A stretch of DNA of 64,000 bases from the UHGV virus genome UHGV-0020835; one strand, given 5' to 3'. Each line of letters opens with the position of its first letter. Position 1 is the stretch's first letter. The position numbers and the translations under genes are program-made. The DNA is from a virus. Positions 3,014 through 15,074 of the stretch are shown here, in pieces. The notes under the pieces were generated by a model that searched no databases, had not been told where the DNA came from, and worked only from the letters and a program-made list of their open reading frames with translations.

Positions 3014-5592
3014 TGCTTTATTCTTCTAACTATAGTGCTTTATTGTTGGGTTGCCTAATGAACAACACCCAACTTCTATTCAATCCATCTTACCCCCTAA
3101 CAAAAACCGACTTTGACCCTGAGCCGGTACACCGTATCATTTTTATCGCCACTTGTAAGTTGGCTGAAGCTGGGGCTGGTAGCGTTAGTGAGGTTGAGAT
3201 TGATAATTATGTCAAAGACTATCCGGTTCAATATGAAACGCTAAACGATAGCAATTTTCTTGACTTTGTGCCTACTGTAAAAGAGCTATGCTCACCTGAG
3301 AGTTTTGAGCTATATTATACCACCTTGCGTAAGTTCAGTCTGTTGCGTGAGCTTAAAGAGGATGGGTATAACATTGCTGATTATTATGATGAAATGCTCG
3401 ATGAGACAGAGCAAATGGCCAAGTTAAACAAGTGGACTATTGGCGAGATTCTTACTGACATTGAGTTTAAGTCGGCAAAGCTGAGAACTAAGTACGATGT
3501 TAAGTATGTACGGAACGAAATCAAGGCTGGTGAGAATGTAGCCGAACGGCTTGAGGCGTTTAAGGAACAACCGTCATTTGGTGCTTTGTTCCAGAGCGGG
3601 TATTTGAGTACAATTTGGAATGGATGGTGCAGAGGGCATTTGGGGCTAAGAGGCGGTGGGTCTGGTACAGGAAAGGCCATTCCTAATGACACAATTATTC
3701 CCACTCCTAACGGAAGTAAGCGTGTTGATGAAATTAAGATTGGTGATTATCTTTATAGTCGCGAAGGCAAACCAACTAAAGTTGTTGGTGTATTCCCACA
3801 GGGCAAAAAAGAAGTATGGGAAGTTGAACTAAAAGATGGACGTAAGGCTAAATGTTGTGATGAACACTTGTGGTCAGTATATAGCACTAGTCGAAATAAA
3901 AGAGGACATACACAGCCTTTTGTTTATACTTTGAAAGATTTAATAAAAACAGGTATCATGGATAACAAAGGTTACAGATTTTCTATTCCTATGCACAGTC
4001 CCATCAAGAAAGAAGAGAAAGAATTTTTTATCCCTCCGTATCTAATGGGTTTGTTTTTAGGTGACGCAAGTTTGCGTTCTCAGCCTTCTAATCACGTTTT
4101 TAGTTTTTCTTCGCCCAATGAAGAATTGCCAAACGTTATAGCTAATACAATGGGATGGACTTATAAAAGAAACTCTCTTCACAACTACAATTGGACTTTT
4201 TATAACCATGGTAAACTTGTTCATGTTGAGCATGTTCTGAAAGATTATCCTGAGTTAATCAATACCTATTCTCATACTAAGTTTATTCCTCGTGATTATC
4301 TTGACGGTTCTGTTCAACAGCGTTTTGAATTATTAACCGGTCTGCTTGATACAGATGGCAGCATTAGCCCCAGAAGCGGTTTAATTAGTTATTTTACAAC
4401 ATCAAAGCAACTAAAAACAGATATTGTTGAGCTATGTTATTCTCTTGGAATGACTGTAAACGTTAGGATGGATGTTCGTGAAAATAAAAGAACTTGTTTT
4501 GACCTTAAAATTCATTGTGATAAAAAATTAAAATCAACGGTGTTTAAGTATTCGCCTAAAAAAGCAATCGCTGTGTCTTATACACAAACTATTAAACGAC
4601 AAGAGCATAGAGATAGGATTCAGATTGTTTCGATTAAAGACCTTGGTTATAAAACAGATATGACTTGTTTCTTAGTTGATAACGATGAGCATTTGTTTCT
4701 GATGAATGACTTTATTGTTACTCATAATAGTCGTTTTGCAGTAGCTGATTTGGCCAAAGTTGGAGCAAAAGAGCTATGGTCAAATGAAATTGGTGATTTC
4801 GTTGTCAATGATAATTATCAATCACCTACTCTATTCATCGCTACAGAACAAGACATTGAGACAGAGGTTGAACCGATGTTTTGGTCTGCTGTGAGTGGGG
4901 TTGAGTATAGGTCTATTAAGAATGGCCTATGTACGCCTGACGAAGAAGCCCGTATTGTCAAAGCTGGTGAGATTATCGCCCAATCCAATCTTCATATTAC
5001 GTCTATGCCCAACTTTAACACAAAAGCCCTGAAACGTAAAATCAAAGAGATGGTTGAGTGTGAGGGTATCGGGTATTGTGTATTTGACTATATGGAACAA
5101 CAGGGCGATATTAGCCAAGAGTATCGTGAGGTTGTAGGCAGTGCTGGTAGACAAGACCAAGTGTTGCTGTATCTGGCCACTGAACTCAAGACAATGGCTG
5201 AAGATATGAATGTTGGTATTTTGACAAGCCAACAACTAAATGATACATGGAAAACCCTTAGCTTTGTTGATGAAACGGCTTTGGCTGGTGGAAAATCGAC
5301 TAAGAATAAAATCGACTTTGGCTCCATTATTATTCCAACATCCTACCTGCGCAAAGACATGAAGCAGATTGAGCCTTATTTAAAGCGTAATGGAGTAGGC
5401 AATAATCGTCAACCCATGCCTAACATTTGTGAGTTTATCATCAAGTCACGTTATGGCATTTATGGTGATAAACGCCTAAAGCTATGGTCATACTTTGACC
5501 GTGGTACATTCCAACGCCATGATTATTTTGTAACAGATGATAAAAATAATGTGTTGGATGATATTCAACCCAGTGAATTGGGGGATTTTTGA
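3013..5592 (+). CDS. DnaB/gp4-family replicative DNA helicase, intein-containing precursor
   Basis: Walker A GGGSGTGK is interrupted after Lys221 and resumes with S-RFAVADLAK, which restores GxxGxGKS. The C-terminal extein has DnaB-like features. The insert carries two LAGLIDADG motifs. Confidence 0.65.
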   Translation: MLYSSNYSALLLGCLMNNTQLLFNPSYPLTKTDFDPEPVHRIIFIATCKLAEAGAGSVSEVEIDNYVKDYPVQYETLNDSNFLDFVPTVKELCSPESFELYYTTLRKFSLLRELKEDGYNIADYYDEMLDETEQMAKLNKWTIGEILTDIEFKSAKLRTKYDVKYVRNEIKAGENVAERLEAFKEQPSFGALFQSGYLSTIWNGWCRGHLGLRGGGSGTGKAIPNDTIIPTPNGSKRVDEIKIGDYLYSREGKPTKVVGVFPQGKKEVWEVELKDGRKAKCCDEHLWSVYSTSRNKRGHTQPFVYTLKDLIKTGIMDNKGYRFSIPMHSPIKKEEKEFFIPPYLMGLFLGDASLRSQPSNHVFSFSSPNEELPNVIANTMGWTYKRNSLHNYNWTFYNHGKLVHVEHVLKDYPELINTYSHTKFIPRDYLDGSVQQRFELLTGLLDTDGSISPRSGLISYFTTSKQLKTDIVELCYSLGMTVNVRMDVRENKRTCFDLKIHCDKKLKSTVFKYSPKKAIAVSYTQTIKRQEHRDRIQIVSIKDLGYKTDMTCFLVDNDEHLFLMNDFIVTHNSRFAVADLAKVGAKELWSNEIGDFVVNDNYQSPTLFIATEQDIETEVEPMFWSAVSGVEYRSIKNGLCTPDEEARIVKAGEIIAQSNLHITSMPNFNTKALKRKIKEMVECEGIGYCVFDYMEQQGDISQEYREVVGSAGRQDQVLLYLATELKTMAEDMNVGILTSQQLNDTWKTLSFVDETALAGGKSTKNKIDFGSIIIPTSYLRKDMKQIEPYLKRNGVGNNRQPMPNICEFIIKSRYGIYGDKRLKLWSYFDRGTFQRHDYFVTDDKNNVLDDIQPSELGDF
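3676..4728 (+). mobile_element. intein (about 351 aa) with LAGLIDADG homing-endonuclease domain, in-frame in the helicase P-loop
   Basis: The N-terminal block AIPNDTIIPTPNG...IKIGDYLYS matches intein block A but starts with Ala instead of Cys/Ser. LAGLIDADG motifs are LMGLFLGDAS and LLTGLLDTDGS. It ends with the C-terminal VTHN motif, and the +1 extein residue is Ser. Confidence 0.6.
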
Positions 5593-11257: not shown

Positions 11258-11458
11258 ATGAAAAAAGTAACTGGTTGTATTGATGTTCGTGCATTGGGAC
11301 ATTATGATTGGGAGTTTTATGTGGAAGATGATGTTACTGATGAAGAAATTAAAGAAAAAGTAGACGAAATTTGCAATTATTATATTGACTATAATGTAGA
11401 AGAAGGTTACGAAGTTTATACTGAAACTCGTTATCGTAAGAAAGGAAGTCGATTTTAA
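11258..11458 (+). CDS. hypothetical protein
   Basis: 66-aa acidic ORF with a GAGGAGG RBS. Confidence 0.4.
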   Translation: MKKVTGCIDVRALGHYDWEFYVEDDVTDEEIKEKVDEICNYYIDYNVEEGYEVYTETRYRKKGSRF

Positions 11459-11898
11459 TGTACGAACAGTATACTGATAAGCAGATTGTTGAGATGTTGA
11501 AGCCCAAATTAATTAAAATTTTAGGCGATGGTATGTGGGATACCGCACTTGAACATTCAGAGGGAGGCAGAAACTTGATTAAGCTAATTGTCACTATCTA
11601 CCGTTCAGCCTATATTCGTGGCCAGCTTGGCCGGAGTTTTATTATTGATGAGCCTAAGCAGACTGAACATTGGGTTCCTGCAACCAAAGATAACGTTAAG
11701 GCTGGTAGTAAGGTTAGAATGATTAAAGGGGTAGCCCATAAAAATAATCCTCTGTGGTATCCTGATGCTGGAATAGTAGGAACTGTAACAGAGGTTTGGT
11801 TTCCTAACTATCTTATCCAATGGCCAAAAGGAACTACAAGTGAAACAGATAAATGGTGTTGTGACAATACTCGCCTTGAGGTACTACTATGCGAGTAA
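11458..11898 (+). CDS. hypothetical protein
   Basis: 146-aa ORF, translationally coupled to its neighbours. Confidence 0.4.
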   Translation: MYEQYTDKQIVEMLKPKLIKILGDGMWDTALEHSEGGRNLIKLIVTIYRSAYIRGQLGRSFIIDEPKQTEHWVPATKDNVKAGSKVRMIKGVAHKNNPLWYPDAGIVGTVTEVWFPNYLIQWPKGTTSETDKWCCDNTRLEVLLCE

Positions 11899-12099
11899 AA
11901 CCACTACTATCTAAAATCAACCCTTCTACGTTTATTGAGGACTATCTACAAGCCCATGGTATTGAGCAAACCGCCCTACACCTAAACCCAGAAGAAGGAT
12001 GCTTAGACAATTCTCGATTCTATCCTAACATGAGCAAAGGGGCTGAATTACTGAAGCAAGCAGCTGATGATGATTGGAAAATTGGCTTGCTGGTGGATT
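11889..12099 (+). CDS. recJ: RecJ-like DHH phosphoesterase, exon 1
   Basis: The ORF ends ...KIGLLVD-stop. Splicing after the U at about 12099 and before nt 13124 gives LLVDFDCDGMCSA, which matches DHH motif I as in RecJ (GDFDADG). Confidence 0.5.
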
Positions 12100-13123
12100 G
12101 AATAGTCAATAGTCCACCTTAAAAGAGATAAACTGCGGGGAACTCCTTAGAGCCTTAATAACCAAGCATATATAGGGATATATATGTGGCGTTCAGTAAC
12201 GGGAACGGTACGGTAACATCATTAAGGATTGGACAATCAAACGCAACGACACCTCAAGTATCGGAATGAGGGACGCTCAACGACTATAACCTCTGAAAAT
12301 TGTATAGTCTAAACCCAAATTGTTGTTTAATTTCACAAGAAAGGAGGTGTAAATATGCCAAGTTATAAAGCAAATTTTAATTATTTTGACAAAATTGATA
12401 CGCCTGATAAAGCATATTGGTTAGGATTCATTTGGGCTGATGGTTATATTGCCAAAAGAGAACGTAAACAACTTAACGGTTGTGTGCGAATTGAATATAA
12501 TTTGAAACTGGCGTTGCAAGAGAGCGATGCTTCTCATGTACAGAAATTTTTGGATTGTATAGAAAGTAATTACCCAGTTCATTTTTATCAATCAAACGGC
12601 TTTAATAAAAAGTCGAGATTAGAAGCAAGAGCTTTTGTTACTAATCTTCATTTATGTTCTTTATTATATGAAGATTATGGTATTGTGCCAAGACGCTATG
12701 ATATTTCTTTGGTTATTAAGGTAATACCAAAAGAATATGAAAAATATTTTATTCTTGGCATTTTTGACGCTGATGGTAGTTTTGTTGCTTACCAAGGAGC
12801 TTATGGCCAAAAGATGAATATAACATTTGGTGGCAGCGAATCTCTATTGCATTTTATAGAGAGTCATTTAACAACAAATGAAATTATCTTAAAAGCCGAT
12901 ACTGGGTCTGGGCAACGAAAATTGCATCAACGACATGAAGGCAAAGACGGCACTTGGAGGACTTTGAATTTTGCTGGTAAACAGCAATGTATGAAGATTA
13001 TAAATTATCTTTATAAGGATTCTCCAATTTATCTTAACCGCAAATATCAAAAATATTTGGATTTGCCATATCATAATTAAACAACAATTTGTTAAAGTAT
13101 GCCGAAAGGCAGGGTATAATTGG
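12100..13123 (+). mobile_element. group I intron (about 1.0 kb) interrupting the recJ-like gene
   Basis: It contains a complete LAGLIDADG endonuclease ORF. Excising it restores a conserved DHH motif in frame. The 5' exon ends in U and the intron ends in G. The 12102-12354 region is noncoding and structured. Confidence 0.5.
12355..13080 (+). CDS. LAGLIDADG homing endonuclease (intron-encoded)
   Basis: Two LAGLIDADG motifs, YWLGFIWADGYI and ILGIFDADGSF, with its own AAGGAGG RBS. Confidence 0.7.
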   Translation: MPSYKANFNYFDKIDTPDKAYWLGFIWADGYIAKRERKQLNGCVRIEYNLKLALQESDASHVQKFLDCIESNYPVHFYQSNGFNKKSRLEARAFVTNLHLCSLLYEDYGIVPRRYDISLVIKVIPKEYEKYFILGIFDADGSFVAYQGAYGQKMNITFGGSESLLHFIESHLTTNEIILKADTGSGQRKLHQRHEGKDGTWRTLNFAGKQQCMKIINYLYKDSPIYLNRKYQKYLDLPYHN

Positions 13124-14562
13124 TTGACTGTGATGGTATGTGTTCTGCGACCATTGTTCGTCAGTTCCTTAATACACAATACAACATTGACCCTATTATC
13201 TACATCCGCAAGGGCAAGGCTCATGGCCTAAGAAAGTCAGCCTCAGATGATGTCGTACCCAAGATTATTGAGGATGGATGTCAACTACTAATTGTACCAG
13301 ATGCCGGGTCGAATGATGTTAATGAGTGTCAAGACCTACTAATGCACAGATGTCATACCTTGGTTTTAGACCATCATAAGATTGAGGTTGATAACCCTTG
13401 GGCTGTTGTTATCAATCATCACTTAGGCGAAGGGTTGAATATGGCTCTGTCTGGTACAGGTGTAACGGCTAAGTTTATTGAGTATTACTGTCAGAAATAT
13501 GGCTTGTTTATCCCCTATATAGATGACCTTGTGGCCATGTCTATTATCTCTGATAGTTGTGACCTAACATCCTTAGAGAACAGATATTATGTCCATAACG
13601 GCTTACACAACGTCCAGAATCCCCTAATCCAAGCCATGTTGCCCTCAGCAGTTAAGCGTTATGGCCTAACGCCTACTGGTTACAGTTGGGCTATGATTCC
13701 GTTAATCAACGCTATATGTCGCAAAGAAGAGACAGATGAAAAGCATAAATTGTTTGATGCTTTTAGTGGCCATGGCGATATTGAATCTGCTCTAAAGATG
13801 TGCCGTTCAGCTCACCGCCTACAAACAGAAACGGTGAAACAGGCCGTAGAGGATGTTGAGCCTACTCTTGACCTTGACCATAAAGTGATTATTGGATTTT
13901 GCGATAGTGGGCTGGCTAACCAAATTGGCCTGATTGCTAATAAGTTCCAAGGCAAATACAATAAGCCCACTATCCTACTGCGTCAAGCAAGCTCTACAAC
14001 ATGGTCTGGTAGTCTAAGAAGCCCCGTGGATTTAACTGATGTGGTTAATGAGTCTGGTTTAGCTAAGGCTATGGGACATAATCAAGCTGCTGGTGTGTTG
14101 GTTCGCAAGTCTAATCTTAATCGTCTGATTGCTTATCTTGATGAGGCTGATTTCCCGCTTGAGCCTGAGATTGATGTAGCCGGGTATATCGCCCCTCAGC
14201 AAATCAATAATAAGCTTTGCAAGGCTTGCGAGGATAATGCTGAGTTGTGGGGTCAGGGGCTTAGAGAACCCACCTTCTACATCAACGCCGAGATTGACGA
14301 GACCAATGTACAGGTCTTTGAAAAGCGCACTACAACAGTAAAAATTACAGTAAATGGCGTTGATTTTCTGCTATTTATGGCCACACCTGAACAAGTAGAC
14401 AAGTTGACACAAAAGGGCAAAAAAAGCCTATCTTTGATTGTAACTTTGTCTACGAACGAATGGAATGGCGTGGTTAAGCCTCAAGGTAAAATTAAGCAGT
14501 TTGAGGTTGGTGAGGTTGAGGATAAGGGTGAAAGTAAAGAAAGCTGGATGGATGATTTTTGA
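13124..14562 (+). CDS. recJ: RecJ-like DHH phosphoesterase, exon 2
   Basis: Carries the rest of motif I (DCDGMCSA), LIVPDAGSND, and the DHH motif itself (LVLDHHK). The DHHA1-like C-terminal part has GHNQAAG. Confidence 0.6.
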
Positions 14563-15074
14563 TAAAAGAAAATATTTATATTTTTAAAAAAGATTACGGC
14601 GTTTGTTATACCAATAATAATCTTGAATATTTTATATTCGATTTAGAAGACTATGAATTGATTTCTGAAAGAATTTGGACGAGAAACAAACAAGGATATT
14701 TTATTTCAAAATACAGAACACATAAAAATCAAATTTTACTTCATAGACTAATTATGGGAAGCCCAAAAGGAATGGATATTGACCACATAAATGGAGACAA
14801 AAAAGATAATCGAAGGTTAAATTTACGAATTACAACGCGTCAACAAAATTCTTTTAATAAACACCCAATAAATAAAATTATGGGCGTATATTATGAAGCA
14901 GATAGAAATAAATGGTGTGCAATGCTTTATATAAAAGACAAAGGAACTTTTAGAAAAAGATTTGCAACACAAGAAGAGGCAATTAAATATAGATTACAAT
15001 GTGAATTACAATTTTTTGGAGAAGATTTTGCACCGCAAAGGCATTTATTTAAACAATATAATATAGGAGCGTAA
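14559..15074 (+). CDS. free-standing HNH homing endonuclease with AP2-like domain
   Basis: HNH motif DIDHINGDKKDNRRLNLRITTRQQN and an AP2-like segment GVYYEADRNKWCAMLYI...FATQEEAIKYR. Confidence 0.55.
   Translation: MIKENIYIFKKDYGVCYTNNNLEYFIFDLEDYELISERIWTRNKQGYFISKYRTHKNQILLHRLIMGSPKGMDIDHINGDKKDNRRLNLRITTRQQNSFNKHPINKIMGVYYEADRNKWCAMLYIKDKGTFRKRFATQEEAIKYRLQCELQFFGEDFAPQRHLFKQYNIGA

Follow-up and report, generated by a model that had tools for sequence, protein, structure and literature searches.

The subject of this study is a broken gene in 64,000 nucleotides (nt) of the viral genome UHGV-0020835, a stretch that we call the window. The gene is predicted to encode a RecJ-like exonuclease, and it very probably carries a mobile group I intron with a gene for a LAGLIDADG homing endonuclease, as judged by sequence comparison. 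An earlier note on this DNA had proposed that a RecJ-like gene is split by a group I intron of about 1 kb with a double-motif LAGLIDADG protein, and this proposal is borne out by the open reading frames (ORFs), by protein homologues and by a set of covarying helices. The element is ordinary in kind; its host gene is, so far as we found, unreported with an intron. Full-text literature on recJ and phage group I introns held no description of a phage recJ intron, which is absence of evidence only. The point of interest is the reduced core of the ribozyme, which is presumably competent for splicing, has neither helix P8 nor helix P2, and recurs in other introns of uncultivated phages.

Both halves of the gene are present as the earlier note had described them. 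An ORF of 70 amino acids (aa) at 11889-12101 terminates in LLVD and a stop codon, and a 480-aa ORF at 13120-14562 contains DCDG...DHH, with the DHH motif at 13369. Pfam searches with the 480-aa ORF identified the RecJ family domains DHH (35.8 bits) and RecJ_OB (37.3 bits), both over their cut-offs, and DHHA1 at 23.8 bits, slightly under its cut-off of 25.9. Conceptual splicing yields a 549-aa protein in which motif I is restored as DVDCDG. This product aligns in one piece, over residues 1-549, with RecJ-like genes that are uninterrupted in cultured phages; identity is about 29%, and Enterocloster phage CB457P1 gives the best match. RecJ structures align with it at E 7e-13, and the alignment with Thermus thermophilus RecJ (2zxo) passes through the junction. 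In a large protein collection, 118 of the 120 best homologues are uninterrupted proteins of about 545-575 aa, with up to 95% identity and 100% coverage; the uninterrupted P0001 is 95% identical to the 549-aa product over its full length. We conclude from these comparisons that 11889-14562 is one gene for a predicted RecJ-like (DHH/DHHA1/OB) single-strand DNA exonuclease of an uncultivated phage. A megablast search with the locus returned no match among deposited phages, and where relatives have a source label, it names human faecal or gut samples. Two of the 120 best homologues, P0017 (501 aa) and P0023 (471 aa), begin at or just past MVDCDG; they look like gene calls limited to exon 2 in alleles that bear the intron, annotation artefacts from an undetected intron.

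Protein homologues and contiguous intronless alleles together fix the boundaries of the intron at 12099 and 13122. Exon 1 terminates at U12098 and exon 2 begins at G13123. In six intronless contigs among the related loci (referred to by L numbers; here L001-L003 and L005-L007), exons 1 and 2 are contiguous, and the DNA agrees with that of the window through T12098 and again from G13123, unambiguously, as ...GAT/GTT.... In L006, for example, the sequence around the insertion site reads TTGGTTGAT followed directly by GTTGATTGTGATGG. The insertion thus lies between codons D70 and V71 of metal-binding motif I (DVDCDG), and the spliced protein reads LLVD/VDCDG. The junction residue is V in 113 of the 118 full-length homologues (D-V-D-x-D-G) and I, P or N in the rest. 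Ligation of the exons restores an intact, conserved reading frame; the RNA junction would read ...GGUGGAU followed by GUUGACUG, and the junction-spanning peptide would be LLVDVDCDGMCSATIVR. The one-piece protein alignments of the spliced product, through the junction, speak against a chance arrangement. The earlier note had the length of 1,024 nt right, as well as an exon that ends in U and an intron that ends in G, and had set the junction one base downstream of its true position at 12098/13123. The motif it had read as DFDCDG is therefore DVDCDG, with which the intronless DNA agrees.

Exon 1 ends in GTGGAT in all intron-bearing alleles, which is complementary to the internal guide. At the corresponding place (4202-4210 versus window 12090-12098), the intronless alleles among L001-L007 have GTTGAT, GTTGAC or GTCGAT, with synonymous Val codons and, in L001, GAC for Asp. 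This difference in the exon-end codons fits co-conversion, and it also fits selection that favors P1 pairing and avoids cleavage.

The gene also appears to be maintained despite its interruption. For pairs of intron-bearing alleles, the ratio of nonsynonymous to synonymous substitution rates (dN/dS) in exon 2 is 0.04-0.13, with dS of 0.46-0.89, and the copies with an ORF-less intron, L011 and L032, also retain intact recJ exons. By this measure the RecJ-like protein is under purifying selection while carrying the intron, which implies that the intron is removed at the RNA level.

The intron has the features expected of group I: a U·G wobble in P1, an omega-G with P10, a P4-P6 scaffold, and a P3-P7 pseudoknot with R and S elements (Table 1; helices were placed by homology and by eye). 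The earlier note had called for P1-P10 pairing, and P1, P10, P3, P4-P6, P7 and P9 can indeed be drawn; P8 is absent, and the core of the recJ intron has no P2. The R element, UCAACGACUAUA, holds the 5' strand of P7, and the S element, UAUAGUCUAA, its 3' strand UAUAGUC. The R-S pattern occurs once in the window and never in shuffles, and P7 covaries (GAACAUA/UAUGUUC) in the P8-less relative L053. The 3' end of the intron is kept in all copies and relatives, every one of which ends ...GGGUA(N3-7)G.

We counted covariation on seven distinct copies trimmed of their ORFs, namely the window, L009 and L011, together with L017, L029, L032 and L037 from pattern scans. Across this set pairing is kept in 98.3% of cells, and 17 pairs (32 cells) show changes in both partners. 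Slid controls, in which the 3' partners were moved by 1-3 columns, gave 30-40% of cells paired and a single pair changing on both sides. P1 forms all seven of its pairs in all seven copies, with G-C, A-U, U·G or G·U as the distal pair. P10 reads GUCAA/UUGAC in the window, GUCGG/CCGAC in L009 and L011, and AUCGG/CCGAU in L017, L029, L032 and L037, three of its pairs changing on both sides. P1 and P10 therefore track the exon sequence, a matching that would be purposeless unless the RNA is spliced. P3 takes the forms AGAG/CUCU, AGGU/ACCU, AGGG/CCCU and AGGC/GCCU in the recJ set, and five further combinations in other P8-less lineages.

Homology points the same way. Many phages have sequences that share 75-79% identity with positions 31-140 of the ORF-less intron; among these are an element of Clostridium phage phiCD211 annotated Intron_gpI and the introns of Bacillus phage SIOphi, one of which scores 73 bits with the Rfam group I model, RF00028. 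An exact 20-mer of the P5 extension retrieved relatives from viral contigs. Those that share this 20-mer and retain P8 are about 80% identical in the core and match RF00028 at 33-44 bits (E 1e-4 to 6e-8); the RF00028 alignment of one of them assigns P3, P4, P5, P6, R, P3', a tiny P8, S and P9. The recJ ribozyme is very probably a reduced descendant of typical phage group I introns. Searches of the window with nhmmer and the family profile, and for the R...S pattern, found no second copy of the intron. An intein and a group II intron were considered and rejected, as stop codons precede the ORF, which lies out of frame, and as the element lacks both the necessary length and a reverse transcriptase. 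As a separate observation, L016 (contig IMGVR_UViG_3300045988_131511, 161 kb) has at least six RF00028-like matches within about 15 kb, with more in L014 on the same contig, an unusually intron-dense region.

Several results weigh against a group I ribozyme at this site. Neither RF00028 nor any other Rfam family matches in the window (gathering threshold, E<=1), in related loci or in any P8-less copy, the sole weak Rfam match being a chance hit to a small nucleolar RNA model. RF00028 also has no match at E<=10 in the 5' half of the intron or in the 259-nt ORF-less copy from L011. The earlier note had named the lack of a recognizable group I core as a reason to give up the intron, and on this search, negative in the window, the 5' half and the ORF-less copy alike, that outcome was obtained. 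A review places P3, P7, P8 and P9 in the catalytic domain and calls P2 alone optional (PMC3984707); because P8 belongs to this textbook domain, a core that lacks it might splice poorly or need a cofactor. P3 has just 4 base pairs (bp). P4, P5, P7 and P9 are invariant within the recJ set, and what supports them is homology, to which the covarying relative L053 adds a single case for P7. The minimum-free-energy fold of the ORF-less intron (z = -1.24) is not better than that of shuffles and recovers only local hairpins, and such folding is uninformative for a pseudoknotted ribozyme. Finally, none of 500 shuffles reached the observed value for the percentage of cells paired, for changes on both sides or for the covariation score, but the seven sequences are related, so this control overstates significance and the slid controls are the safer comparison.

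Since the 259-nt copy, which has no ORF, is also unmatched, the 726-nt ORF is not the cause of the Rfam miss. We attribute it to a core that has lost P8 and P2, and not to the absence of a ribozyme. The two strands of P7 (GACUAUA and UAUAGUC) are separated by 15 nt, made up of AC, the 4-nt P3' and GAAAAUUG. P3' is fixed by its covariation with the strand directly upstream of J3/4. Of the 13 nt between GACUAUAA and UAUAGUC, 4 are the covarying P3' and the remaining 8 are unable to form a hairpin; the longest possible stem within the 8-nt GAAAAUUG is 2 bp, which leaves no P8. Among the relatives, P8 stems are graded, with lengths of 13, 9, 8, 7, 6 and 3 bp.

The P8-less core is not confined to the recJ intron. 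Pattern scans identified more such cores with different P5 extensions, in which 8-10 nt lie between a covarying P3' and P7'. Their flanking exon sequences differ, and by that criterion they probably sit in other genes. For four loci P3 was read by eye. These further introns come from uncultivated phage contigs of 35-195 kb and from a human faecal phage scaffold. Two other candidates from a scan of genome contigs for the P8-less R-S pattern, L045 and L046, were rejected because their flanks do not have the intron's conserved elements. Every deposited cultured-phage intron that we inspected has P8, and a short-query blastn search with the R-S region against deposited phages found no P8-less cultured phage, its sole P8-less match being an unverified human faecal scaffold. 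Limited searches of the literature found no description of a natural group I intron without P8. We regard as evenly balanced the proposal that the recJ intron belongs to a natural class that splices without P8 and P2, occurs in several lineages and genes of uncultivated phages, and is systematically missed by covariance models.

Table 1. Predicted features of the recJ gene and its intron in the window, followed by the P3 pairings of P8-less cores in other loci
Feature	Position	Strand	Remarks
Exon 1 of RecJ-like gene	11889-12098	+	70 codons, the last GTG GAT (V D); homologous to N-terminus of uninterrupted RecJ-like proteins
P1 hairpin	12092-12118	+	Exon 12092-12098 with internal guide 12112-12118; U12098·G12112 wobble at 5' splice site
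Group I intron	12099-13122	+	1,024 nt; begins with in-frame TGA (12099-12101), ends at omega-G13122
P10, guide part	12105-12110	+	5' part of internal guide; pairs with exon 2 13123-13128
P3, 5' strand AGAG	12124-12127	+	Pairs with CUCU 12291-12294; 4 bp
P4-P6 domain	12134-12275	+	75-79% identity to group I introns of phages; same helices in RF00028 alignments of relatives
P4	12134-12139 with 12237-12238 and 12242-12245	+	Invariant in recJ set
P5	12144-12146 with 12231-12233	+	Invariant in recJ set
P5 extension, three-way	P5a 12153-12159/12221-12227; hairpins 12166-12187 and 12190-12207	+	Compensatory changes in P5a and both hairpins
P6	12247-12256/12267-12275	+	Compensatory changes; entire P6 replaced in L011
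Core pseudoknot region	12282-12309	+	P7 5' strand, P3', 8-nt joiner, P7 3' strand
P7	12282-12288 (GACUAUA) with 12303-12309 (UAUAGUC)	+	Invariant in recJ set
Joiner GAAAAUUG	12295-12302	+	8 nt between P3' and P7 3' strand, at expected place of P8
P9	12313-12315 with 13113-13115	+	Invariant in recJ set
P9a	12316-12327 with 13080-13091	+	12-bp stem closing the ORF loop; 5-bp hairpin there in ORF-less copies
Shine-Dalgarno GGAGG	12343-12347	+	7 nt before endonuclease ATG; read from sequence
LAGLIDADG endonuclease gene	12355-13080	+	241 aa, double motif, in P9a side loop
Intron 3' end	13080-13122	+	P9a 3' strand, P9b, P9 3' strand, tail AUAAUUG ending in omega-G13122
P9b hairpin UGCC-GAAA-GGCA	13100-13111	+	Part of intron 3' end
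Exon 2 of RecJ-like gene	13123-14562	+	479 codons, the first GTT GAC TGT GAT GGT (V D C D G of DHH motif I)
P8-less P3 pairing AAGG/CCUU	L027, L028 (around 4155), L031, L036
P8-less P3 pairing CGGU/ACCG	L039, L041
P8-less P3 pairing UGGG/CCCA	L040, L042, L044
P8-less P3 pairing UUGG/CCAA	L043
P8-less P3 pairing UCGAU/AUCGA	L053		GenBank human faecal phage scaffold

The reduced core raises the question of whether the RNA acts alone. Among organellar group I introns, LAGLIDADG proteins are known to act as maturases. The bI3 maturase is mentioned in PMC2813881. If the loss of P8 had caused self-splicing to decay, a protein helper would be needed in vivo, for example the intron's own LAGLIDADG protein as a maturase or an RNA chaperone of host or phage. 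The absence of P8 and the short P3 favor such a helper, and with the exons under purifying selection the RNA must be spliced somehow. We nevertheless consider this explanation improbable. The ORF-less copies L011 and L032 retain intact exons around the same P8-less core, so splicing cannot depend in cis on the encoded protein; additionally, the recurrence of P8-less cores across intron lineages and genes suggests a workable design over decay.

It is still less credible that nothing is spliced and that recJ, broken up by a homing-endonuclease cassette, is translated separately as polypeptides of 70 aa and about 480 aa, which assemble into an active enzyme. Both ORFs are open, and a related lineage, L008-L011, does encode recJ as two ORFs. 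In that lineage, however, the split lies between the DHH domain and the DHHA1/OB part, whereas in the window it falls inside catalytic motif I. No Shine-Dalgarno sequence precedes 13120 or 13137, and the identical break occurs with the 259-nt insert that has no ORF. Moreover, the 298 non-coding nt carry conserved, covarying helices, including P1 and P10 with the exons, that would have no purpose without splicing. As for splicing after U12099 and before U13124, the junction of the earlier note, it does give an in-frame LLVDFDCDG with an exon ending in U and an intron ending in G, and Escherichia coli RecJ has F at this position, but the homologues effectively exclude it (F in none of 118), U12099 pairs with A12111 and so is not in a wobble pair, and the match to intronless DNA stops at 12098 and resumes at 13123.

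For a group I intron spliced at 12098/13123, the following course of events would apply. In the folded pre-mRNA, the end of exon 1, GGUGGAU, would pair with the internal guide to form P1 with U12098·G12112, and a free guanosine bound in P7 would attack after U12098. Omega-G13122 would next take the G site, with GUUGAC of exon 2 held by P10, and ligation of the exons would produce the mRNA for the 549-aa protein. UGA as the first codon of the intron would halt ribosomes coming from exon 1. The LAGLIDADG product presumably cuts the intronless recJ of co-infecting phages at the motif-I sequence, and repair would copy the intron in. We infer each of these elements: the splicing, the self-sufficiency of the ribozyme, and the activity and target of the endonuclease. 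The sequences themselves show how the gene is built, its exact point of insertion, the homology, the covarying helices, the lack of P8 and the selection on the exons.

The putative endonuclease contains two LAGLIDADG motifs, LGFIWADGYI (12421-12450) and LGIFDADGSF (12754-12783), each with an acidic residue. It matches Pfam LAGLIDADG_3 at 24.6 bits (cut-off 22.5), LAGLIDADG_1 at 21.5 bits (under the cut-off of 23.1) and the phrog_4645 'endonuclease' family at E 3.5e-42. In tblastn searches it found intron-encoded and DOD endonucleases of Staphylococcus and crAss-like phages, and a sequence search of the PDB gave no match. The G+C content of its gene is 32%, compared to 42-43% in the recJ exons.

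The distribution of the intron among recJ alleles suggests that it moves. L004 and L009 have the same element at the same site, and L011 and L032 have an ORF-less 259-nt version in the same codon. Between hosts in which the RecJ exon-2 proteins share 43-45% identity and synonymous sites are saturated, the ribozyme still shows 82-95% identity. Similarly, the L009 endonuclease is 83% identical to that of the window, though the RecJ proteins are about 50% identical. ORF-bearing (L009) and ORF-less (L011) forms occur within one recJ lineage. The insertion is in the catalytic DxD codons, a highly conserved sequence typical of homing targets. This pattern fits the usual cycle in which a homing endonuclease drives invasion and the ORF is lost.

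A second mobile element may adjoin the other end of the gene. A free-standing HNH endonuclease ORF at 14559-15074 (171 aa; HNH_3, phrog_99) overlaps the recJ stop codon. Copies that are 95% identical follow recJ in L008 and L010, where recJ is about 57% identical, and seven other loci have no such ORF there. Across 14230-15070, which includes the recJ 3' end (14230-14562), DNA identity to the divergent lineage jumps from about 55% to 90-98%. These identities suggest a co-conversion or mosaic tract left by a second homing element, one independent of the intron.

Other differences in gene content were observed around recJ. In L008 (4001-6369) and L010 (4001-6384) of the divergent lineage, an N6/N4 DNA methylase gene (PF01555, E 7e-32) fills the gap between the two recJ ORFs, with overlapping ORF ends and no space for a ribozyme; in L009 and L011, exon 2 consists of two ORFs about 70 nt apart. 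Upstream of recJ in the window, a 146-aa ORF (11458-11898) has no match in Pfam or PHROG. Its version in L005 (3333-4007) and L008 (3327-4010) is 227 aa long, with the C-terminal approximately 80 residues tandemly duplicated.

These observations have consequences for how such genes are read. Because RF00028 does not flag the intron, intron-bearing recJ alleles are mis-called, and their database proteins are apparently truncated at the N-terminus, starting MVDCDG.... If the P8-less class is real, P8 is dispensable in nature, and both the intron content of phages and the 'truncated' gene calls of metagenomes have been mis-estimated. The series of P8 stems of 13, 9, 8, 7, 6, 3 and 0 bp offers a ready test of what P8 contributes, and the 259-nt ORF-less form is a compact scaffold for ribozyme engineering. 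At this locus, an apparent homing-type invasion of a codon in the catalytic motif, seen in recJ alleles whose proteins are only 43-57% identical, is combined with a separate HNH endonuclease that seems to be mobile at the other end of the gene.

Comparison with known systems places each part of the locus. The window gene has the domain order of bacterial and phage RecJ, a DHH-DHHA1-OB 5'-3' exonuclease of single-stranded DNA (T. thermophilus 2zxo, D. radiodurans 5f54), and its protein carries the RecJ signatures motif I DxDxDG, the DHH motif and GHxxAAG, aligning over residues 49-400. It differs in having only about 29% identity to its nearest cultured-phage homologues and in a DHHA1 domain that scores slightly under the Pfam cut-off. 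The LAGLIDADG protein resembles other double-motif endonucleases (phrog_4645; the Twort-like 'DOD homing endonuclease' of Staphylococcus phages; the 'mobile intron protein' of crAss-like cr116_1) in its size of about 240 aa, its location in a peripheral intron loop and its own ribosome-binding site, but is only about 30-33% identical to any deposited phage protein.

The ribozyme is closest to phage introns that RF00028 recognizes, such as those of SIOphi, the phiCD211 Intron_gpI element and the nrdD intron of Enterocloster phage CB457P1. It shares with them a P4-P6 domain that is 75-79% identical, the R (UCAACGACUA) and S (UAUAGUCUAA) elements, the P9 tail GGGUA...G, the U·G wobble of P1, P10 and the omega-G, and a location in conserved codons of phage genes for DNA metabolism or structure. 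Unlike the recJ intron, these introns have a P8 of 6-13 bp, and some have P2 or P7.1/P7.2, none of which it possesses. An intermediate form is found in L014, L016, L018 and L021, which share with the recJ intron the 20-mer of the P5 extension as well as R, S and P9b, and which also have no P2. They match RF00028 at E 1e-4 to 6e-8 and retain a 3-bp P8 (CUC-GAAA-GAG), whereas the recJ intron does neither; the DNA polymerase intron of Vibrio phage Va1 likewise has a 3-bp P8. Set beside this 3-bp form, ACUGA-CUC-GAAA-GAG-AUUG, the recJ intron reads as the same sequence minus both strands of the stem, ...P3'-GAAA-AUUG-P7'.

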